A DNA stretch of 64,000 nt from an uncultured Pseudomonadales bacterium (GTDB taxonomy: Bacteria > Patescibacteriota > Microgenomatia > UBA1400 > PJMF01): the NCBI GenBank assembly GCA_964637295.1, contig CAZWWE010000003.1, forward strand, positions 37,565 to 101,564. The letters run 5' to 3'. The position numbers and the translations under genes are program-made. Each line of letters opens with the position of its first letter. Within the stretch, counting starts at the first letter, position 1. The notes below the pieces were generated by a model that saw nothing but the letters and a program-made list of their open reading frames with translations, did no database searches and had not been told where the DNA came from. Shown one piece after another: positions 1 to 63,827 of this stretch.

Positions 1-258
1 GAGCTTTATGTCAAGAAAGATGGTGAAGATTTCAAGTTAAAAGCTACGGAAGAAAATGAATATCGTTTTGTTGGCAAACTAGAACTTGCCCGCGGTCGCT
101 ATGAGCTGTACGCCAAAGCTTATTCTCGAGAAGGCAAAACCAAAGAAAGCAGCAAAATTCGTATTGGTACTGGTGGCATGGCTTGGGACTATGTGGAGCC
201 AGTGTTAACCCCCACTCCCAGCGAACCCACTCCGACCGCCTCATCTAGTGCTAATTTA
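1..258 (+). CDS. 3' end of a hypothetical protein (C-terminal ~85 aa, Pro/Thr-rich tail); 5' end lies outside the window
   Basis: Open frame 1 from the window edge to TAG at 256-258, translating to ELYVKKDGEDFKLKATEENEYRF...TPTPSEPTPTASSSANL. Codon usage resembles neighbouring genes. The listed minus-strand ORF 44..244 is its antisense shadow. Confidence 0.4.
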
Positions 259-316
259 TAGAAGTTGTCGCAAGAAAATTTACAGCAATTTTTCAATTTT
301 GATCAGACAATTCTTG

Positions 317-1609
317 TTAAAAAAATAAATAAAATAAACTAAGTAGAGCCAGACCCACCGGTTGTGTCCATAGATAGTGATCCAAGCTCACTATTGCCAA
401 CAGCACCGTAGATTTGAGCAAAAAATGGGCTATTCGCGCCCTTCTAAGCAGATAAAACAGGCCAAAGAACAGATAAAGGCCTCCTTCACTCAGAATTAAT
501 AAAAGCAGCTGATGCGCTGGTTGCACAAAGCGCACGGTTTCTTTGGTAGTTGCAAACTGTTCTAGATAATAAGTGAATTGATTGAGGCCAACGCCAAAAA
601 TAGGCTTGCTTTGCCACATTCTCCAGGCTGCCTGATTTAGATTGGCACGTCGGCCAATTGAGTCAAATTGTTTTTTTTGGCTTGATCGTTCCAAAAATAA
701 AGGTAATAAAACAATCCAGCCAAGAAATAAACTAAATAGTAAAATTTTTTGACCCATTGAAGGGTTTCTGTCCGCTGAATTTTTGGAAAAAAAGTAAGTA
801 TAAAGCAAAAATAAAACTCCGCTTAATAAAGCACTTAGCGATTGAGTGATAAAAACAATACCAACCAGGTTAATGATCAAGGCAATTTTAAGCCAGCGCT
901 GCCAATGATTCTGTTTCAAAACTAAAATGCTCAAAATGACGATTAGACCAGCCAAAATATTGGGGTGAGCAGTGCTGCCATAGGGCAAAATTTTTTCTGC
1001 CCACCAAAATTGAGCTTTGCTAATATTGGCCAAATCAAGCAATCTGCTTTCGCCTAGAAAATGATATGCCAGCAAAGGTTGTTGCCAAATGAATTGATAA
1101 ATGGCTAAGCAACTTTGCACCATGATGACGCCTAAAAGGGTTAATAGGCCAAGTTTTTGGACTTTTGGTCTTTGCCAAAATGGATCCTGGCGCATCAGGT
1201 AGAAAAACAGCCACCACGCACAAAGATGAAGTAAAGCGTGCCAAGCCGCCAGAGGACGTGGGGTAAAAATTTGTACCGCAAATAAGCCGCTCAACCATAG
1301 GTAGACTCCAGGCGATTTTTTGAGTTTGGGCCAAAATCGCCATTCGATTAGTAAGAACAAAATTAAAAAAATATCTACTAAATAAAACTTAGGAATTAAA
1401 TAATCGATCAATAAACCGTCAAGATAAGCACCCTCTAGGGTAATTTTTTTAAATAAATTGAGACTAAAAGTGCTGAGAATCAGTATCAAGAGACTTAGTT
1501 TAGCGATTGGCCAAAACCAAAGTTTTCTAAATTTGTCCCACCAATTGTGCTTGAAATTCATTTTCTGCCATTCTAACAATTTTTTGCCTGATTGGCTCAA
1601 CGGTTTCAT
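317..1609 (-). CDS. Polytopic membrane protein, O-antigen ligase (WaaL/RfaL)-like
   Basis: 430 aa with about 10 or more hydrophobic helices and a large loop, resembling the O-antigen-ligase / oligosaccharide-repeat-unit polymerase fold. Its 5' end overlaps the pheT stop by ~80 nt, so the true start is probably the internal Met (MNFKHNWW...). Confidence 0.4.
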   Translation of the reverse strand: MKPLSQSGKKLLEWQKMNFKHNWWDKFRKLWFWPIAKLSLLILILSTFSLNLFKKITLEGAYLDGLLIDYLIPKFYLVDIFLILFLLIEWRFWPKLKKSPGVYLWLSGLFAVQIFTPRPLAAWHALLHLCAWWLFFYLMRQDPFWQRPKVQKLGLLTLLGVIMVQSCLAIYQFIWQQPLLAYHFLGESRLLDLANISKAQFWWAEKILPYGSTAHPNILAGLIVILSILVLKQNHWQRWLKIALIINLVGIVFITQSLSALLSGVLFLLYTYFFSKNSADRNPSMGQKILLFSLFLGWIVLLPLFLERSSQKKQFDSIGRRANLNQAAWRMWQSKPIFGVGLNQFTYYLEQFATTKETVRFVQPAHQLLLLILSEGGLYLFFGLFYLLRRARIAHFLLKSTVLLAIVSLDHYLWTQPVGLALLSLFYLFF

Positions 1610-3536
1610 TGCTCAAATTAGTAGTGGGATCTTGAAAGAGAAAATTGAAAGTAAAGTTATTTTGATAGATATCACTTAATTCAATTTTTTTAATACGTGG
1701 ATCTAGTTGACTCAGCGCATCCATGAAAGTGCCCACTGCCACGGTGTTTTGCAAGGTGAAGGTTAAACTTTCATTGATGGTGGCGGTTTTAATAATTTTT
1801 TGATAACGAGGATATTTTTTTGCCACTGCTAATAAACTAGCTAAATCAATTTCAAGAGCAACTAAGTCCTGATCTAAAATTACCAGATGCCCAATGAATT
1901 GGCGGCTGCGATCTTGCTTGACGATGATCAGCTCAGCCTCTTGCTTGGCTTGTGGCAGAGTGAGCTTGCGAGCTGGTTTTTCTTTGATGAGGAGTTTTTG
2001 TTGGTGATTAAAGATAAATAAGCGTTCGCAAAGGCTTAAAAAATCTCCTTTGACTTGGCGATAATTTTGTTTGGCTACTAAAGTGAGAGTTAGATTTTGT
2101 TCAGGTAAACCACTTGTTTGTGGATGATAAAGTTTGGCAATTTCAAACACGGCGAGTTGTTGGCGAGTTGGATTCTGTGCCAAAATTTCACACAAAGATG
2201 GGATTAAACTGCGTCGCAAATATTGATGTTCTTGAGTGAGTGGATTAGCCAGCTTGAGATGCTGTTCTAAATCATAGCCAGATGACACAGCTTGTTCGGC
2301 GCTGACTAGCGAATAACTATAAATTTCTTGCCAGCCTCGTGTGGCCAGAAAATGTTTAATCAGATTTTCCAAGTGATAATCAGTAGTAGGATCAGGGTTG
2401 ACGGCTAGTTCACCACTCATTAATTTACTGGGTAAATTGTGATAGCCATAAATTCTGGCTAATTCTTCGATCACGTCGGCGGGAATTTGCAGATCAGAAC
2501 GAAAAGTCGGCGGAGTAACCAGAATTCCATCATTTTTACTAATTACCTGGCAATCTAAATCGGTAAGAATGGTTTGAATTTCTTCCTTTGGCAGTTTGAT
2601 GCCCAGATAATTTTCAATGCTTTGGTATTTGACTTGGACTGGCAGAGCTAACTTGGGAGCAGGAAAATAATCATAAAGCTCTGAGGCAACTTGAGCTTGG
2701 CAAAGTTGACTAAATAATTGGACGCCGTACATCATCACTGCTTTGGCTAAATGAGGATCAACATTTTTTTCATTTAATTGGGCAGCCACAGTACGAATAG
2801 CATGACTCATTGAGGCATAACGTACTTTTTGAGCATCAAGAGATTCGATCCAAAATAAAATTGACTTTGTGTGCTGATCGACGCCCGTATTCAGCGTGCC
2901 CTTGATTGCTGGCAAATCAATGATTTCGCCATTTTCTGCTTCGAAAACAATTTCTCCGCCAAGAGTTTGATGAGTCGCACCGTCTAGAGTGACAAAGCTT
3001 TTACCTTTATTGGCTTCTTTGATGATAATTTTGCCACCCAAATTCATGATTTTGTCATAATCAAAAACGTGACAAGGATGTCCCAATTCGTGAGTGACAT
3101 AATTACTGATATCAATGAGAGCTTCATGAACATTGACGTCAATGGTTTGTAGTCTTTGTTTCATGAGCTCTGGACTATCCACATGTTGCACGTTGGTCAT
3201 CACTACGGCCAAAACACGATGTACAGCCTCAGTTTCATAAATAATTTCTGGCAAAGGCAAGTTCTTGTGGGGATGCTTTTTAATTTCAGGAAAATTAATG
3301 GCTTTGAGCTTAGCTGCAAAACCAGCTCTTTTCAGGATCGTAGCGGCTTCACGAGCGATGCCGCGTACCGACATGCAATCAACTCGATTAGTAGTTACCT
3401 CAAGGTCATAAACGTCATCATGGTAAATTCTTTCAACTGAAGGACCACTCAGAGAGAGATATTTTTGAATATCTGTTTTACTAGCCGTAGTTTGTAAGTG
3501 TTCACGTAGCCAAGAATCTGGAATTAAAATGTTCAT
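1527..3536 (-). CDS. pheT: Phenylalanine--tRNA ligase beta subunit (shortened, 669 aa)
   Basis: N-terminus MNILIPDSWLREHL matches the PheT consensus (M..S..WL.E). The gene lies immediately downstream of pheS with a 2-nt gap. It carries tRNA-binding and B3/B4 domain-like regions. Confidence 0.9.
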   Translation of the reverse strand: MNILIPDSWLREHLQTTASKTDIQKYLSLSGPSVERIYHDDVYDLEVTTNRVDCMSVRGIAREAATILKRAGFAAKLKAINFPEIKKHPHKNLPLPEIIYETEAVHRVLAVVMTNVQHVDSPELMKQRLQTIDVNVHEALIDISNYVTHELGHPCHVFDYDKIMNLGGKIIIKEANKGKSFVTLDGATHQTLGGEIVFEAENGEIIDLPAIKGTLNTGVDQHTKSILFWIESLDAQKVRYASMSHAIRTVAAQLNEKNVDPHLAKAVMMYGVQLFSQLCQAQVASELYDYFPAPKLALPVQVKYQSIENYLGIKLPKEEIQTILTDLDCQVISKNDGILVTPPTFRSDLQIPADVIEELARIYGYHNLPSKLMSGELAVNPDPTTDYHLENLIKHFLATRGWQEIYSYSLVSAEQAVSSGYDLEQHLKLANPLTQEHQYLRRSLIPSLCEILAQNPTRQQLAVFEIAKLYHPQTSGLPEQNLTLTLVAKQNYRQVKGDFLSLCERLFIFNHQQKLLIKEKPARKLTLPQAKQEAELIIVKQDRSRQFIGHLVILDQDLVALEIDLASLLAVAKKYPRYQKIIKTATINESLTFTLQNTVAVGTFMDALSQLDPRIKKIELSDIYQNNFTFNFLFQDPTTNLSNETVEPIRQKIVRMAENEFQAQLVGQI

Positions 3537-23497: not shown

Positions 23498-23583
23498 AGT
23501 TTTTAGATGGCTAGTTTTTCTTAAATAGTGGTAAAAAATTGGTGAAAATCAATCATCTTTGCGCGTCAATAAGTCATTTAGCG

Positions 23584-23657
23584 TGGGTGTGCTTGGAATC
23601 GAACCAAGGACCTCAGTCTTATCAGGACTGCGCTCTAACCATCTGAGCTACACACCC
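23584..23657 (-). tRNA. tRNA-Ile (anticodon GAT), downstream of 16S
   Basis: The reverse complement folds as acceptor GGGTGTG/CACACCC, D arm GCTC-AGATGGTTA-GAGC, anticodon stem CAGTC/GACTG with loop CTGATAA, T arm CTTGG-TTCGATT-CCAAG, and discriminator A. Confidence 0.85.
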
Positions 23658-24200: not shown

Positions 24201-25109
24201 TTCTGAGATAATTAGTTCATCACTGAACTTTACTTCTCTCCCGACTGGGCACACGGTTTTCCCGTACCCTAGCCGACGCTTGATTTTTTACTAAATTTAT
24301 TCATTTTTTTGCGAATGGCTCGCAATTGCTCAATGCCATCTAAAGTTAAATGCTGTTTACTCTTAAATATTTCTACGGCTTGTAGAAAATATTGATAAGA
24401 CAAACGTTTTTTAGCTCTAAGCGGATATTGATTAAAAAATGGAATTAATTTATCAATAATTTCCCTGATCGAAGACACTTTTAGTTCAACGTGTGGATGC
24501 CACCCATAACGCTCATAATTGAGAGTATAGATATGACCACAGCCGAGTGTTTTTTGAATTTGTTGCAAGATTTCTAAATCATCGCTTCGCAATTCGATTT
24601 GAAAATGCAAACGCGCATCCAGACCCAATTTCTTGGTAGGATGTTTAGAGATGACGATGGTGAAGCAGCCTTCTCCATCAACAAATCCTGCTATATATTC
24701 GCCAGGTAATTTTTTATCAAGTGAGTCCTTCCCTTTCTTATGAAAGGTACTATGACTCTTGCAGACTTCCTGATGAATGTTTGATTTCATCACTTCCATC
24801 ATACTCATTTCTCGTTATTAAACAAGAAGCGAGAGACATCAGGATCTCCCTTTGTACCCATAAAGACCTTTTGTTTTCATCTCGAGCCCAGATATTTTAA
24901 ATACTATACTTAAATAAGTAGTTTCCCCAAATGTACGAATGGGTCACCAATATTTAAAATCGTTTAAACTTCAAGCTGAAAACTGCTACTTTTACCCTTC
25001 ATCTAGCTCCTTGCGGAGATTAGACTGTAATTTGGCTTTACTTGGCTTATTTCCAAGTAGTTGGATTCACACCAACTTGTTTTTATAGGCGAAAGGCGCA
25101 TATTTACGT
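24201..25109 (-). mobile_element. Intron (probably group I) inserted in 16S rRNA near E. coli position ~1396/1397, carrying a homing endonuclease ORF
   Basis: 909 nt interrupt the otherwise colinear universal motif TTGTACA|CAC(C/T)GCCCGTCA. The insert encodes a single-motif LAGLIDADG protein in the rRNA sense orientation. Boundaries are placed by the exon consensus and are good to ±1 nt. Confidence 0.7.
24269..24808 (-). CDS. LAGLIDADG homing endonuclease (single-motif type) encoded inside the 16S intron
   Basis: LPGEYIAGFVDGEGCF matches the LAGLIDADG consensus (LAGFIDGDG). The 179-aa product is typical of homodimeric intron-encoded endonucleases. Confidence 0.8.
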   Translation of the reverse strand: MSMMEVMKSNIHQEVCKSHSTFHKKGKDSLDKKLPGEYIAGFVDGEGCFTIVISKHPTKKLGLDARLHFQIELRSDDLEILQQIQKTLGCGHIYTLNYERYGWHPHVELKVSSIREIIDKLIPFFNQYPLRAKKRLSYQYFLQAVEIFKSKQHLTLDGIEQLRAIRKKMNKFSKKSSVG

Positions 25110-26562
25110 TGTACAAGGAGCGAGAACGTATTCACCGCAACCTGCTGATTTGCGATTACTACCGATTCCGACTTCATGCTCTCGAATTGCAGAGAACAAT
25201 CTGAACTGAGGGGCCGTTTAAGGATTAGCTCCACCTCGCGGTCTTGCTTCCCGTTGTCGGCTCCATTGTAGGATGTGTGTAGCCCTGGATGTAAGGGTCG
25301 TGCTGACTTGACGTCATCCTCTCCTTCCTCCCTGCAAAAAGCAGGGCAGTCTCTCGTGACACTTGTAACACGAGATAAGGGTTGCGCTCGTTACCACACT
25401 TAAGTGGACGCCTCACGACACGAGCTGACGACAGCCATGCAACACCTGTGTACCACTCTCGAAGAAGACTTAGTTTCCTAAGCCGTGCAGGTACATGTCA
25501 AACCCAGGTAAGGTTTTTCGCTTTGTATCGAATTAAACCACATGCTCCACCGGTTGTGCGCTCCCCCGTCAATTCCTTTGAGTTTTAATCTTGCGATCGT
25601 AATCCCCAGGCGCCTTGCTTAACGCGTTAGCTTACATCACTCAATCCATAAAGGACCAAGCAATTAGCAAGGAATGTTTACGGCTTGGACTACAGGGGTC
25701 TCTAATCCCTTTTGCTACCCAAGCTTTCGTCCCTGAGCGTCAGTATTACCCTAGGAGCCCGCCTTCGCGAATGGTGTTCCTCTCGATATCTACGGATTTC
25801 ACCCCTCCACCGAGAATTCCAGCTCCCCATAGTAAACTCTAGTTTATCAGTTTTCCATCCTGTATCTGGAGTTGAGCCCCAGTATTAAAGATGAAACTTG
25901 ATAAACCGCCGACGGTACGCTTTACGCCCAGTAAATCCGGATAATGCTTGCACCCTACGTATTACCGAGGCTTCTGGCACGTAGTTAGCAGGTGCTTTCT
26001 AGCAGGGTACGCTCAAAATTTGTTCCCCTGCCACAGTGGTTTACACTCCGAAAAGCTTCTTCCCACACGCGGTGTCGCTGCGTCAGACTTTCGTCCATTG
26101 CGCAATATTCCCAGTTGCTGCCACCCGTAGGTGTAGGCACCGTGTCTCAGTTACCTTGTGGCCGGTCATGCTCTCACACCGGCTACCCGTCATTGGCTTG
26201 GTGAGCCGTTACCTCACCAACTACCTGATAGGGCGCAGGCCTCTCCCCAAGCGTCTTGCGACTTTGACCTTACGGCCATATGCGGCATTACCCCACCTTT
26301 CGATGAGCTATTCCCCACTTGAGGGTAAGTTCCTACGTATTACTCACCCGTCTGCCACTCGTTCTTGCGAACCGTTCGACTTGCATGCTTAAGGCACACC
26401 GCCAGCATTCATCCTGAGCCAGGATCAAACTCTTAAAAAAAAGTTTGATTAGCTCTATAAAAAACTAATTTGATTTACTTAAAAAATTGACGGACTTTTC
26501 CAAAAAAAGGAAAAATCCTTGCACACTTTCTATCACTATATTTATTTTCAATTGGCTGTTAC

Positions 26563-57673: not shown

Positions 57674-58360
57674 TTAATTTTCGCTAATGGTGATGGAGCT
57701 AATCGTCACCGGTTCGACTGGTTTAGATAATTCACCACTAAAACTATTGGTAACGGCAGCGGTGGCAATTTTGTCTACAGTTTCTAGTCCACTGACGACT
57801 TGACCAAAAATGACGTAGTTTGGTTGTAATCCATAATCTTGATGCATGATGAAAAATTGGCTACCGTTGGTGTTTGGCCCAGAGTTGGCCATAGCCACAG
57901 TGCCACGCTTATATTCACCGGTAAATTTTTCGTCAGCAAATTGATAGCCTGGTCCGCCAGTGCCATCGCCCCGAGGGTCGCCACCTTGAATCATGAAGCC
58001 ATCAATGACGCGATGAAAAATAGTGTTGTCATAAAATTTGTTTTGGGCTAAATAGAGAAAATTATTAGCAGTAATGGGAGTTTCCTTAGTATTGAGACTG
58101 ATCGTGATATCTCCAGCACTTGTATGGAGAGTGGCTTGATATTGTTTAGTTTGATCGATGATCATTTCTGGCTGATTCATTTTTTTATTGGCTGACAGAC
58201 TAGCTGGCATGCTCTCTTCTTTCTCTTGGTAATTAATATTGAGTTGGCCATCGGTTTGTTTGTCGATTTTTTTGTTCATTTTTTTAATGCTCAGAGTGCC
58301 GACGAAGAACAAAAAAATGAGCAATACGGTAATTAGTAAGTAATCTTTTTTCATAAGCAA
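57674..58360 (-). CDS. Cyclophilin-type peptidyl-prolyl cis-trans isomerase, membrane-anchored
   Basis: FHRVIDGFMIQGGDP and related cyclophilin motifs, with an N-terminal transmembrane anchor. Confidence 0.88.
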   Translation of the reverse strand: MLMKKDYLLITVLLIFLFFVGTLSIKKMNKKIDKQTDGQLNINYQEKEESMPASLSANKKMNQPEMIIDQTKQYQATLHTSAGDITISLNTKETPITANNFLYLAQNKFYDNTIFHRVIDGFMIQGGDPRGDGTGGPGYQFADEKFTGEYKRGTVAMANSGPNTNGSQFFIMHQDYGLQPNYVIFGQVVSGLETVDKIATAAVTNSFSGELSKPVEPVTISSITISEN

Positions 58361-59336: not shown

Positions 59337-60479
59337 TTATACCACTTTTGATCCCATTTTTCGAGGCAGTCGATAGCCTGGATTAAAACCAGGCGTTTCT
59401 ATTCTGGGCCTTTCCATTTTTCGTGGAGTCTTTTTATCAAGTCTTACCGCACCATAAGCAAAACGGGCTGGCCGAGCACTTTTGAACTTATTTGGCCACT
59501 TAACTTTTTTCTTGACCAGATTGGGATCATTAGTAATTTGTTCAAACAATTCTTTTTCTTGGTCAGATAGAACTCGATAATTGGCGGTCATTAATCTTTC
59601 TAAGATTTTAGTTTTTTCTTTTTCGTCCTTTAGCAATTTTTGATAAAACTTAGTGTCTTCAAAACTTAAAGCTGGAGTAGTTAAAACTTGCTCGATTCGC
59701 GCTTGCTCTTTTAGGCTGGCATCATATAGGTTCATATAGTAAAAAATTGGAAAAAGACTTGATTTATCTGGAGAAAAACCTTGCTCATCAAGCAAAATAG
59801 CGATGCTTGGCCAATTGAAACCATCATCTAAATCTGTTTCAATCCATTTTTTTTCTTGATCTGCATCCATATAAGCATGGGTGACTAGATTGCTGAAATA
59901 TTTAGCCTCAATCGCTTGCGGATCTCCACAAAGCTCTCCTGTACAGCGCCAGAAGCTACTGACTTTGCCCTCACTTTGACGATCGGCAAATTGTTGGTAG
60001 ACCATGATTTGCGCAGCAAGCTCTCTCATTTTATTTAGCTCATCGCTTTCTTTGTTGCCCAAAACGATGACTGTTTGGCACCAATCAGCGAACAATGATG
60101 ACCAGCAAATCGGTTTATAAGCTATTGAAGTCGGTAAGCTAGCATTTTGAGAGTTCCAAGCGATTATTTGCAAGTCTTCTTCAGTCACCGCCTCCAGAGT
60201 TCTTAAAATTTTTTGCTCAATCAATTTTTGGCTATCTGGATTAATTTGGGAATCATTTTTGACTCGCTGAATAATTGCTTTTAAATTCAATCGAATCTCT
60301 CTTGTTTCAAACTCGTCATAACAATGACCTTGTAATAGAGGATTTTCGAATTTTTGGCAACTGCTGGTTTTTTCAGCGTATTCTGCAATGAGGAATAATA
60401 TATAACAGGCCAACATCATTATAAAAATGCTAGTGGCTGTTTCTGTTGCTTTAATTTTTTCAGATTTAGACATGCTCAC
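59337..60479 (-). CDS. Membrane-anchored hypothetical protein, paralogue of the downstream gene and lacking its HExxH
   Basis: N-terminal transmembrane segment. It aligns with the 60553..61692 protein over the whole length (ILLDEQGFSPDKSSLF versus ILLDEKGLSPDKSALF), but the HELAHH position reads QIMVYQ. Confidence 0.5.
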   Translation of the reverse strand: MSMSKSEKIKATETATSIFIMMLACYILFLIAEYAEKTSSCQKFENPLLQGHCYDEFETREIRLNLKAIIQRVKNDSQINPDSQKLIEQKILRTLEAVTEEDLQIIAWNSQNASLPTSIAYKPICWSSLFADWCQTVIVLGNKESDELNKMRELAAQIMVYQQFADRQSEGKVSSFWRCTGELCGDPQAIEAKYFSNLVTHAYMDADQEKKWIETDLDDGFNWPSIAILLDEQGFSPDKSSLFPIFYYMNLYDASLKEQARIEQVLTTPALSFEDTKFYQKLLKDEKEKTKILERLMTANYRVLSDQEKELFEQITNDPNLVKKKVKWPNKFKSARPARFAYGAVRLDKKTPRKMERPRIETPGFNPGYRLPRKMGSKVV

Positions 60480-60552
60480 CTTTGTTTTTTTGGTTTAAAT
60501 ATCAACTAAATGATGAGCAGGTTTTTTTGCTAGCTTTGGAATTATAGCACGC

Positions 60553-61692
60553 TTAATCAATTGTTTGATTGTTTGTTTCTAAACTGATTAGACGACTCGG
60601 ACTTTCAGGAGTAAGAGAAGTTGCCATTGGTTGATTTGATTCTGTGCCACTTATTTCATTGTCTAAAATAATTCTGTTGATAACTAAATTAGGATCAGTG
60701 ACAATTTGTTTGTAAAGTTCTTGTTCTTCTGGCGTTAATGTGGCGTAATTTTCTTCCATGAGTTCGACTAAAAGTCGCATATATCTTTCAATGTTTGGTA
60801 AATCTTGGCGATATAATTGCAAATCTTCTTCATTCATCGTTGCTTGACCTTTTGCTAGAATTTCTTCGGTTAAGCGATATTGCTCTGCACTTAAGTTATA
60901 CAAGCTCATATATTCAAAAATTGCAAAAAGTGCTGATTTATCAGGAGAAAGCCCTTTCTCGTCAAGCAAGATGGCAACATTGGGCAAATTAATGCCAATT
61001 TGTGTGTCCTCATTTGTCCAGGTATTTTTATCCTCCAGATCTCTAAAGGCGTACTGAACAAGATTTGACAAAAATTCTGGCATAATTTCTAACTCTAATT
61101 CACATTTCCCTCCACTAGGACAAACTATAAATTCATCAGCCTCGCCTGTTTCTTGCTTTTTAACTAACTGTTGATGGTGAGCTAGTTCGTGAACGAGAGA
61201 GGAGAAATAGTCGCCTGGCTTTTTTAAATCATCCATGTCGATAATGACGGTATGTTCACAATGTAAGCCCAAGCGTTTTTCTATAGCAGTACAATCGCCG
61301 AAAGAAATCATTGGGGTCACATCAGTTTTTGAAGCAGTCCAATCTACTATACGTAATTTATCTTGCGTGATTGCTTGTGCTGCAAGCTCTAGCACTTCAG
61401 TGATTTTTGCTTTGCTTGTCGGACTGATTTCCTGATGAAAATTTAAGCGATCTAGAATAATTTGAAAAATTTTATTCGGATCATCAACTTCTTCAAGACA
61501 ATGCTCTTGGAACAATAAATTTTTTGGAGCATCACAATCTCGATTTTCCTCAAGAATTTCTCCAATCCACCACAATAAAGCTAAGATAATAACAATCTTG
61601 ATGATGTTGCCAGTAACTTCAACTGTTTTTTTGATTTCCGCCATATTTGTCTTTCTAAACGAAGCTTTCGCATTTGCTTCGTTTTTTGACAA
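60553..61692 (-). CDS. Membrane-anchored putative zinc metallopeptidase (HExxH), paralogue of the upstream gene
   Basis: N-terminal transmembrane segment. SLVHELAHHQQ is an HExxH motif, and CPSGGKCELE is a conserved Cys pair. Confidence 0.5.
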   Translation of the reverse strand: MSKNEANAKASFRKTNMAEIKKTVEVTGNIIKIVIILALLWWIGEILEENRDCDAPKNLLFQEHCLEEVDDPNKIFQIILDRLNFHQEISPTSKAKITEVLELAAQAITQDKLRIVDWTASKTDVTPMISFGDCTAIEKRLGLHCEHTVIIDMDDLKKPGDYFSSLVHELAHHQQLVKKQETGEADEFIVCPSGGKCELELEIMPEFLSNLVQYAFRDLEDKNTWTNEDTQIGINLPNVAILLDEKGLSPDKSALFAIFEYMSLYNLSAEQYRLTEEILAKGQATMNEEDLQLYRQDLPNIERYMRLLVELMEENYATLTPEEQELYKQIVTDPNLVINRIILDNEISGTESNQPMATSLTPESPSRLISLETNNQTID

Positions 61693-61865
61693 GACGGGAA
61701 TTATAACACAATTTAGACAGATAGATAGATCTAAATTAAATAAAACAACAGTTAAAATTTTTGACCCTAGAGTCTACGGGAATTTTCAAGTGTGATGGTA
61801 CAAGTAAATGAAGTGATAGTTTTTTTAAAATGGATAATCAATTGAAATTCAAGTAAGATTAAATT

Positions 61866-63017
61866 ATGGAAAAAACTCCTCTTAACGAAGCCAAAGAAGT
61901 AATTGAAGAAATTGTTGAAGAAGTAAAACCAGAATCGAAAAAAAATTATAGTAAGTTGATTATTGGTTTATTGATAGCCATCGTGCTGATTTTAATTGCT
62001 TTGGTGTTTTTTTTGATAAAAAAATCTGGACTTTATATTCAAAATAATGTTATTAGTGAAGCTCCAGGGGTTGAGCAGGTTTTCGTTTCGCCAGTCGCAC
62101 CAACAGACACGAGCTCATGGGCTACTTATACAGACAAGGAAGCTGGTTTTTCCTTTAAATATCCTCCAGACAGAGTTTTGGTCAATTATTCTGAGACAGA
62201 TGAAGTGGATGGGCTTTTTTTATCGGTTGCAGCGGAAAAATTAGCTGATATTCCTGAAGATCTACCTTCATTTATGGGACGTAAAGACGCTTTATTAGAA
62301 AAAGAATTGCTAGACAATGGAAAAGCAGTCGGCGCGGTCAAGATCGGTTCATTGAGTGGAAATGTTTCTTCAGAATATTCTAGGTTTGAAGTGTGTAGTG
62401 TATTTTTTGCCAGAAAATTAAAATTTTACCCAGGCGAGTATCGCGTGATGCTGATTTTAACTGCTCCTAAAGAAAGAGTTGTAGATGAAATGCCAGAGTT
62501 TTTCCAAATTGATGAGGCTAATTGTGGTTCGCAAAAAATGTGGAAACTTGATCAGAGGGAAAATTTTGATGATCTGTTACAAAAAAATCAAGGACAAGGC
62601 ATTGCGCAGGAATGGTACAACACCTTTAATGACATAGTTAAAACTATTGAGTTATTTGAGCCAGCTAAAGCTGTTCCAAGCTCAACCCCGACTCAAGCAT
62701 TAAATGATGTTTTAACCTACACAAATGATCTGTATAAATTCAAATTGAATTATGAGACTCCCTATCGTGTTTTAACAAGCAAGGATGATTTATATGGTCA
62801 TCCAAACGGAATAGCTCTGATTTACGCAGGTGGGCAGGCTTACGACATTGTTATCGAGGTCTGGAATAGTAAGGCAGCTTATGAAAAAGAATATACCGGA
62901 AGACTCTCTGATCTAAAAGTAGTTGAAAGTGCTGGTAAATTTATTACTTTTTTAAATAATACATCTTCAGCAGAAAATCAGAAAATTATTGATTCAGTAA
63001 AAATGATAGCTGAGTAA
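61866..63017 (+). CDS. Hypothetical protein with an N-terminal membrane anchor and an extracytoplasmic domain
   Basis: Acidic N-terminus, one transmembrane helix and a ~300-aa domain with no recognisable motif. Confidence 0.4.
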   Translation: MEKTPLNEAKEVIEEIVEEVKPESKKNYSKLIIGLLIAIVLILIALVFFLIKKSGLYIQNNVISEAPGVEQVFVSPVAPTDTSSWATYTDKEAGFSFKYPPDRVLVNYSETDEVDGLFLSVAAEKLADIPEDLPSFMGRKDALLEKELLDNGKAVGAVKIGSLSGNVSSEYSRFEVCSVFFARKLKFYPGEYRVMLILTAPKERVVDEMPEFFQIDEANCGSQKMWKLDQRENFDDLLQKNQGQGIAQEWYNTFNDIVKTIELFEPAKAVPSSTPTQALNDVLTYTNDLYKFKLNYETPYRVLTSKDDLYGHPNGIALIYAGGQAYDIVIEVWNSKAAYEKEYTGRLSDLKVVESAGKFITFLNNTSSAENQKIIDSVKMIAE

Positions 63018-63032
63018 ATATACAGGTGAAAA

Positions 63033-63827
63033 ATGAAATCTAGTTTTCAAGCTAATTTTTCTTTAGTGAAGTTTTTATTAATTGTGATCTTTTTTTCATG
63101 GCCATTTCAGATCGCCTATCCTTTTTTAGGTGAGTCATATCGTTATTTATTATTGATATCGATGACCATGGTGGCGGTGGCCACCTACATATCTGGTAAA
63201 TTTGTTTTTAGGGATGGTTTTCAGGGTGCTGGATGGCAATTGGGAAAGCCCAAGCATTATTTATTATCATTGCTTTTAGCCTTGTTTTTGTGGCTTTTTC
63301 CAAGCATTATTGAGAGAGGTTTGGGAATACATCAACCTATTCGGGAATGGTCAACTAGTGAGTTCATTTTAACTTTTTTGCAAAGTTTTTTGATTACTTT
63401 AATCCCGGCTTTTAGCGAAGAATTTGCTTGGCGAGGCTATCTTTTACCTAGACTATTTGATCGCTATAGCAAGCGTCGAGCTCTATTGCTTCACGGATTG
63501 CTTACATGGACTTGGCACTTACCCGTACTTATTTTTATGGGTTGGCAAATGAACAATAGTTCGCCCGCGATTTCCGTTCTTGTCGTATTACTTGTCAGCC
63601 TCATACCAACAATTTTTCATGCCATCGTATTCGCATATATTTGGCATGCTTCAAACAGTTTGCTAGTATCCACTGTTTATCATTCTAGTTTTGATGAGGT
63701 AAGAGACAGCTTGGAAAATTCAATAGGACTTGGAGCGTTGGGGCAAAATTGGCAAATGCTAGTTTTGGTTATTTTAGGAGCTTTTATACTTTGGAAAGCT
63801 CAATGGAAAAAAGAAGAATGTATTTAA
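63033..63827 (+). CDS. CPBP-family (CAAX protease / Abi) intramembrane metalloprotease
   Basis: SEEFAWRGYLLPRL is motif 1 (EExxxR), with later FHAIVFAYIWHASN His motifs. The protein is polytopic. Confidence 0.7.
   Translation: MKSSFQANFSLVKFLLIVIFFSWPFQIAYPFLGESYRYLLLISMTMVAVATYISGKFVFRDGFQGAGWQLGKPKHYLLSLLLALFLWLFPSIIERGLGIHQPIREWSTSEFILTFLQSFLITLIPAFSEEFAWRGYLLPRLFDRYSKRRALLLHGLLTWTWHLPVLIFMGWQMNNSSPAISVLVVLLVSLIPTIFHAIVFAYIWHASNSLLVSTVYHSSFDEVRDSLENSIGLGALGQNWQMLVLVILGAFILWKAQWKKEECI

Follow-up and report, generated by a model that had tools for sequence, protein, structure and literature searches.

The window analysed here, a 64,000-nucleotide (nt) stretch of contig CAZWWE010000003.1, carries two adjacent genes on its minus strand, A and B, which encode membrane-anchored proteins with (A) and without (B) an HExxH motif. 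The open reading frames (ORFs), delimited mechanically, adjoin each other at 60553..61692 (A) and 59337..60479 (B). The two proteins share 28% identity and 51% positives over 334 amino acids (BLASTP, E 9e-47), and A and B are true tandem paralogues that align along their length, as a first-pass annotation of this DNA had proposed. The strings quoted in that annotation (AILLDEKGLSPDKS, SIAILLDEQGFSPDKS, SLVHELAHHQQ, ELAAQIMVYQQ and the C-x4/5-C spacing) are all present, at verified coordinates. Its description of the HExxH copy as downstream and of the degenerate copy as upstream is correct in plus-strand coordinates only; since both genes lie on the minus strand, the HExxH copy A is transcribed first and the degenerate copy B lies downstream of it.

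The HELAH of A (His152-Glu153-x-x-His156) lies opposite the AQIMV of B, where invariant Leu and Gln residues flank both. This placement is the same in BLASTP and in two MAFFT alignments, so the motif is positionally equivalent to the lost site, which bears out the first-pass reading. Thirty residues beyond the HExxH, Glu186 in the segment LEIMP is a candidate third metal ligand, and the aligned segment of B, QAIEA, has Ala at this position. In every copy of B, His152 is replaced by Ala or Leu, Glu153 by Gln or Asn, His156 by Val or Thr, and Glu186 by Ala or Lys. A column test, made without presupposing the motif, compared five HExxH-bearing proteins with the B copies over 305 ungapped columns. 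Of these columns, 49 do not vary among the five HExxH-bearing proteins, and 26 of the 49 are likewise fixed in B; another 19 of the 49 are altered in all B copies, including the columns of His152, Glu153, His156, Glu186, Asp136, Pro189, and Tyr198.

The HExxH and Glu186 are invariant in four A orthologues, down to 61% identity, and the HExxH with its Glu is also kept in a distant homologue, P0007, which is 24% identical. Gluzincins, which make up the MEROPS clan MA(E), combine an HExxH with a downstream Glu ligand, as in thermolysin (M4) and in families M1, M9, and M27. The gap between the second His and the Glu is 29 residues in A and 16 residues in P0007, and the two gaps differ because of an inserted Cys-x5-Cys loop in A. 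The Glu of P0007 stands in the context N-E-A-V-P-D, which we take to resemble the NEAxSD of thermolysin, as a lead rather than a test. Both His-to-Glu spacings fall within the range known for gluzincins (PMC11266112, Table 2; otherwise established knowledge).

A and B each possess one N-terminal hydrophobic helix, in keeping with the membrane anchor annotated for both, and six ectodomain cysteines that make up three aligned pairs. The cysteine spacing is C-x5-C in A (C175/C181) and C-x4-C in B (C177/C182), and both cysteines of the middle pair are gone together in the allele P0002. In P0007, a twin-arginine signal and an L-A-A-C lipobox replace the membrane helix. Taken together, the single helix, the cysteine pairs, and the signal and lipobox of P0007 indicate that the predicted ectodomains of A and B are membrane-tethered and lie outside the cytoplasm. 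The C-terminal tails of the two proteins are oppositely charged: the tail of A (60556-60666) is acidic and Ser/Thr-rich with a charge of -5, and that of B is strongly basic, with +12 over 53 residues (59337-59495) and an RLPRK motif that is conserved in P0005. The most strongly conserved motifs, GxNxP, LLDxxGxSPDxSxLF, and DPNLV, are common to A, B, and P0007 and are located outside the HExxH region. B keeps the membrane anchor, the three predicted disulfide pairs, and the C-terminal half with its high conservation.

B is under purifying selection. Its ratio of nonsynonymous to synonymous substitution rates (dN/dS) is 0.20 between the window and L085, the most divergent related contig (~72% identical in DNA), and 0.30 between the window and a closer contig, L001 (GCA_030154545.1); that of A is 0.31 between the window and L085. 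A decaying pseudogene is ruled out for B by this low dN/dS and by a frame that is intact in every lineage. The co-occurrence of both copies in relatives, a check that the first-pass annotation had suggested, showed A followed by B on each of the three contigs where both genes are covered (L001, L084, and L085), and short fragments agree with this order.

A is built of modules and recombines; B is constant. Over 6.8 kb of synteny, identity between the window and L001 is 91-100%, except at 60778-61362, a cassette in A that takes in the putative catalytic core together with the GINLP and LLDxxGLSPD motifs. Between the A copies of L001 and L084 the boundaries of this cassette are sharp, with zero mismatches outside nucleotides 284-865 (codons 95-289) and 218 mismatches (62.5% identity) inside. 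A second mosaic patch covers the membrane anchor, and the allele P0012 has a third, L085-like N-terminal module; the few known alleles of A hold at least three N-terminal modules and at least three core modules. The HExxH and Glu186 survive every one of these module swaps. B is 97-100% identical in the same comparisons. The first-pass annotation had suggested that the pair could be a protease and its regulatory or decoy partner; the failure of B to co-vary with the swapped core of A speaks against a specific inhibitor or immunity role. The swap of the core between near-identical strains suggests an exposed domain under diversifying pressure.

The likely starts of the two genes are the ATG codons at 61644 (A) and 60473 (B), which are the same in all database homologues; P0001-P0003 and P0013 begin at the ATG equivalent to 61644 of A. 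These internal starts agree with two further observations: the GTG at 60479 falls within an AAGGTGA ribosome-binding site, and the -10-like element TGTTATAAT lies only 8 nt before the TTG at 61692. An element of the form TGTG(C/T)TA(T/C)AAT precedes both A and B, in the window as well as in L085 (~915-925 and ~2093-2103). This shared element suggests that each copy may have its own promoter, possibly duplicated together with the gene. No terminator-like site was found between A and B, and a hidden Markov model (HMM) scan of all six frames of the window returned A and B and no third paralogue.

The A/B family is nearly an orphan. Word-indexed searches of 5.8 billion proteins with A, B, and a family profile returned only P0001-P0005, which are the family itself (P0004 is 100% identical to B), and when 1.84 billion representatives were searched exhaustively with HMMER, the sole additions were P0007 (E 4e-4) and a phage tape-measure protein. 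From the two protein searches together, the family amounts to no more than four lineages, closely related to one another, plus a single distant homologue that is exported, and no related loci were found among GTDB genome contigs or JGI metagenome contigs. P0007 matches A with 57 bits over 321 amino acids and B with 28.5 bits over 110 amino acids; it is far closer to A than to B, which makes B the derived copy. The host is a candidate-phyla-radiation (CPR, Patescibacteria) bacterium, whose best UvrB match is only 58% identical and belongs to a Microgenomates metagenome-assembled genome.

The tape-measure protein (P0006, TMP_3, 3301 amino acids) contains about ten repeats of ~95 amino acids at residues ~1100-2000, which end in 'DIVNDPNLS' and resemble the helix and the 'IVTDPNLV' motif of A and B (residues 260-321 of A, window 60682-60865). 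Only the sum over the repeats makes this resemblance significant; a single repeat reaches 15 bits at best, which is insignificant alone.

We regard it as about an even call that A is a gluzincin-like peptidase tethered outside the cytoplasm, from an undescribed, lineage-restricted family, and that B is its selectively maintained non-catalytic paralogue. The ectodomain of A would bind zinc via His152, His156, and Glu186, with Glu153 as the general base; B would have originated in a tandem duplication, followed by loss of all four residues, and would have been kept as a pseudopeptidase. The sequence of A predicts metal binding and peptide cleavage, and a zincin fold is plausible for A from the motif, the ligand spacing, and the order of the secondary structure elements. 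In both AlphaFold2 (AF2) runs the motif is on a long helix after three β-strands and two helices, with HELAH inside the predicted helix 144-166 in the full model or 99-122 in the trimmed model. The only recurring weak Pfam matches are DUF6782 and MPTase-PolyVal, a zincin-like family (E 0.08, sub-threshold), and both are putative zincins.

Several results weigh against this interpretation. Neither A nor B has a significant match in Pfam, NCBIfam, PHROGs, or PADLOC; the best Pfam match, DUF6782 ('putative metallopeptidase'), reaches 13.7 bits against a cut-off of 27, and profile searches of PDB sequences returned nothing relevant. The AF2 models are of low to moderate confidence, with a predicted local distance difference test (pLDDT) score of 64.2 for the full-length protein and 46.6 for the trimmed domain, and the region of Glu186 is among the least confident (pLDDT <50). 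Three fold searches with these weak models retrieved no zincin. The membrane helix shows only a weak charge bias, A and B are each preceded by a promoter-like element of their own, and no result here speaks for an interaction between A and B. The enzyme/pseudo-enzyme pair of the first-pass annotation therefore stands in part: the motif is conserved in all A-type orthologues and the distant homologue, and B has replaced all four residues under purifying selection, but a family match and a zincin in the fold searches are missing and the AF2 models are weak.

The most serious alternative, which we consider unlikely though well worth weighing, is that A and B are both surface or envelope proteins without enzymatic activity, such as adhesins or scaffolds, in which the conserved C-terminal half is the functional part. 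The HExxH and Glu of A would then form a structural or regulatory metal site or the site of a non-peptidase reaction, and B would be no more than a diverged paralogue that binds in a role of its own, independently of A. Such proteins would fit the location of the strongest motifs shared by A, B, and P0007 outside the HExxH region, the absence of a detected zincin fold or family, the conservation of B without the motif, the promoter-like element of each gene, and the mosaic of recombining alleles, which is typical of surface-exposed binding proteins. However, none of the four residues (the two His, the Glu between them, and the downstream Glu) varies in the A lineage or in a 24%-identical homologue, even through a swap that altered 38% of the surrounding nucleotides; the motif is also located on a predicted helix, and its ligands are spaced much as in gluzincins.

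It is improbable that the HExxH is incidental and functionless and that A and B differ by ordinary divergence. By a rough estimate from composition, an HExxH would arise by chance in ~1% of proteins of this length, and fold and family support are absent here as well; yet all five non-B members have the motif and the downstream Glu unchanged, although only 49 of the 305 columns are invariant, and the four residues are lost together in both B lineages. A toxin-immunity system, with A as a polymorphic secreted effector or toxin with a strain-exchanged core and B as an immunity or decoy protein, would account for the adjacent genes and for the sharply bounded, highly divergent core of A between near-identical strains. 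We rejected this very improbable arrangement on the ground that B does not co-vary with A, being 97-100% identical where the core of A falls to ~62%; moreover, B is homologous to A, which is unusual for immunity proteins, A is membrane-anchored without a recognisable secretion or toxin domain, and PADLOC and Pfam gave nothing. Finally, it is also very improbable that A belongs with the HExxH metalloenzymes that are not proteases, such as relatives of the 2-oxoglutarate-dependent HExxH hydroxylases, as the paired cysteines and the twin-arginine signal and lipobox of the homologue point outside the cytoplasm, where cosubstrates of the 2-oxoglutarate type would not be expected.

Comparisons with known systems show what a gluzincin-like A and a non-catalytic B would share with them and where they depart. 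Like the gluzincins, A has its HExxH on a predicted helix after β-strands, and the family has a conserved Glu 16-29 residues past the second His; unlike them, A matches no MA-clan family significantly in sequence or profile, its fold searches retrieved no zincin, and it possesses a unique conserved C-terminal half and a long helical hairpin. The weak matches to DUF6782 (PF20573) and MPTase-PolyVal (PF18818) overlap the strand-plus-HExxH-helix segment at residues 79-161 of A. However, their scores (E 0.04-0.08) are far below the threshold, only two of the eight family members match each, and A is not a member of either by the Pfam criterion; a literature search on DUF6782 returned nothing. A DUF4344-type family, which the first-pass annotation had put forward, shares the HExxH with A, but none of the eight members gave an HMM match to it at E <= 5.

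For the pairing of an active and an inactive copy, the M16B peptidases (mitochondrial processing peptidase alpha/beta and the bacterial two-gene versions) combine an active subunit with a homologous inactive one that has no zinc ligands; the two are encoded by adjacent genes in prokaryotes, and the inactive subunit aids substrate binding (PMC11266112). The same logic of active and inactive adjacent genes may apply to A and B as an analogy only. The M16B proteins have an inverted HxxEH, soluble subunits of ~500 amino acids, and an unrelated fold, with no homology to A or B; Pfam gave no Peptidase_M16 match. In the inactive ADAMs and the chloroplast FtsHi proteins, the HExxH is replaced by non-liganding residues, and the protein, still selected for, functions as a binder or scaffold (PMC11266112, Table 2). 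B is similar in that its HExxH is replaced while selection continues, but the ADAMs and FtsHi are eukaryotic and of known fold, whereas the active parent family of B is itself undescribed. By analogy, B might cooperate with A, for instance by binding substrate or serving as a scaffold in contact with the invariant helical segments of A, which we consider doubtful.

If A is active, it would represent an undescribed zincin-like family within the CPR surface proteome, which is very poorly characterised, and would provide a compact bacterial pair of an active enzyme and a pseudoenzyme encoded side by side. An active protease with an inactive paralogue is a well-established concept, and here it is the family that is new. 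CPR bacteria depend on other cells and external nutrients. If the exposed domain of A is under diversifying pressure, A would be a candidate determinant of host or phage interaction. A CPR-specific surface module can be imagined, although we think it hardly likely, in which the catalytic core, swapped as a cassette between strains, would change specificity toward host or prey surface proteins, and the dead, basic-tailed paralogue would serve as a constant anchoring or substrate-presenting partner, an episymbiont-host 'warhead plus constant adaptor' possibly linked to the CPBP protease described below. As no more than a handful of metagenomic contigs carry the family, it has a narrow reach unless a function is demonstrated.

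The coordinates of the features of A, B, and their neighbours are collected in Table 1.

Table 1. Genes, motifs, and sequence elements at the A/B locus, in coordinates of the window.
Feature	Coordinates	Strand	Basis or remark
Copy A	60553..61644	-	363 amino acids, membrane-anchored, HExxH; mechanical ORF reaches TTG at 61692
Copy B	59337..60473	-	378 amino acids, membrane-anchored, without the motif; mechanical ORF from GTG at 60479
HELAH (H152-E153-x-x-H156), candidate zinc-binding/catalytic motif of A	61177..61191	-	Invariant in A orthologues and P0007
Glu186 (in LEIMP), candidate third metal ligand of A	61087..61089	-	Invariant in five HExxH-bearing proteins; Ala or Lys in B
AQIMV of B, aligned with HELAH of A	60000..60014	-	BLASTP and MAFFT
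QAIEA of B, aligned with LEIMP of A	59904..59918	-	Alignment; ligand Glu to Ala
N-terminal hydrophobic membrane anchor of A, ~residues 11-31	61552..61614	-	Kyte-Doolittle 19-mer maximum 2.08; AF2 helix 2-33
Mosaic cassette, codons 95-289 of A	60778..61362	-	59-70% identical to L001; counterpart at L001 8284-8865
Second mosaic patch, codons 11-36 of A (membrane anchor)	61537..61614	-	32 mismatches in 78 nt, window vs L084
TGTTATAAT, extended -10-like element before A	61700..61708	-	Equivalent in L085 is TGTGCTACAAT
TGCTATAAT, extended -10-like element before B	60541..60549	-	Begins 4 nt past the stop codon of A; conserved in L085
ORF of 282 amino acids without membrane segment	58418..59266	-	After B in every lineage with sequence reaching that far
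Gene of a 383-amino-acid membrane-anchored protein	61866..63017	+	Divergent from A; absent in L085
CPBP (Rce1-like) intramembrane protease gene	63033..63827	+	PF02517, E 3.3e-12, 47 bits vs cut-off 22.4

The first-pass annotation had placed A and B upstream of a CPBP module. This does not hold, as the CPBP gene is on the opposite strand and divergent, with the 383-amino-acid gene in between. The CPBP gene, which has additional sub-threshold matches to myxosortase families, is divergent from A and B in all lineages covered. It stands directly beside A in L085 (positions 1-3404 compared) because the 383-amino-acid gene is missing there; this absence from the most divergent lineage makes the adjacency of CPBP, A, and B the conserved arrangement.

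The 282-amino-acid and 383-amino-acid neighbours have no significant match in Pfam, NCBIfam, PADLOC, or PHROGs. The 282-amino-acid protein contains a stretch, 'IVDMDGVLLNT', like motif I of the haloacid dehalogenase (HAD) proteins, only ~36 residues from its C-terminus, with 'IVIIDDKNKN' upstream of it, and a CxxC as well; the protein could be HAD-like, either permuted or a remnant. The same string of genes ends in a cyclophilin-type prolyl isomerase (57674-58360, minus strand) with an N-terminal membrane helix, which is conserved in L001 and L002 and is probably an extracytoplasmic foldase.

Elsewhere in the window, the ribosomal RNA (rRNA) operon at 24269-26440 is unusual and of a type typical for CPR bacteria. 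With only 1349 nt (25092-26440, minus strand), the 16S rRNA match covers the Rfam model from end to end. An ORF for a LAGLIDADG endonuclease (24269-24808, minus strand) sits between the 16S rRNA and tRNA-Ile (23583-23657) and overlaps a match to the group II intron D1-D4 family (24725-24804), with 37.2 bits against a threshold of 35.

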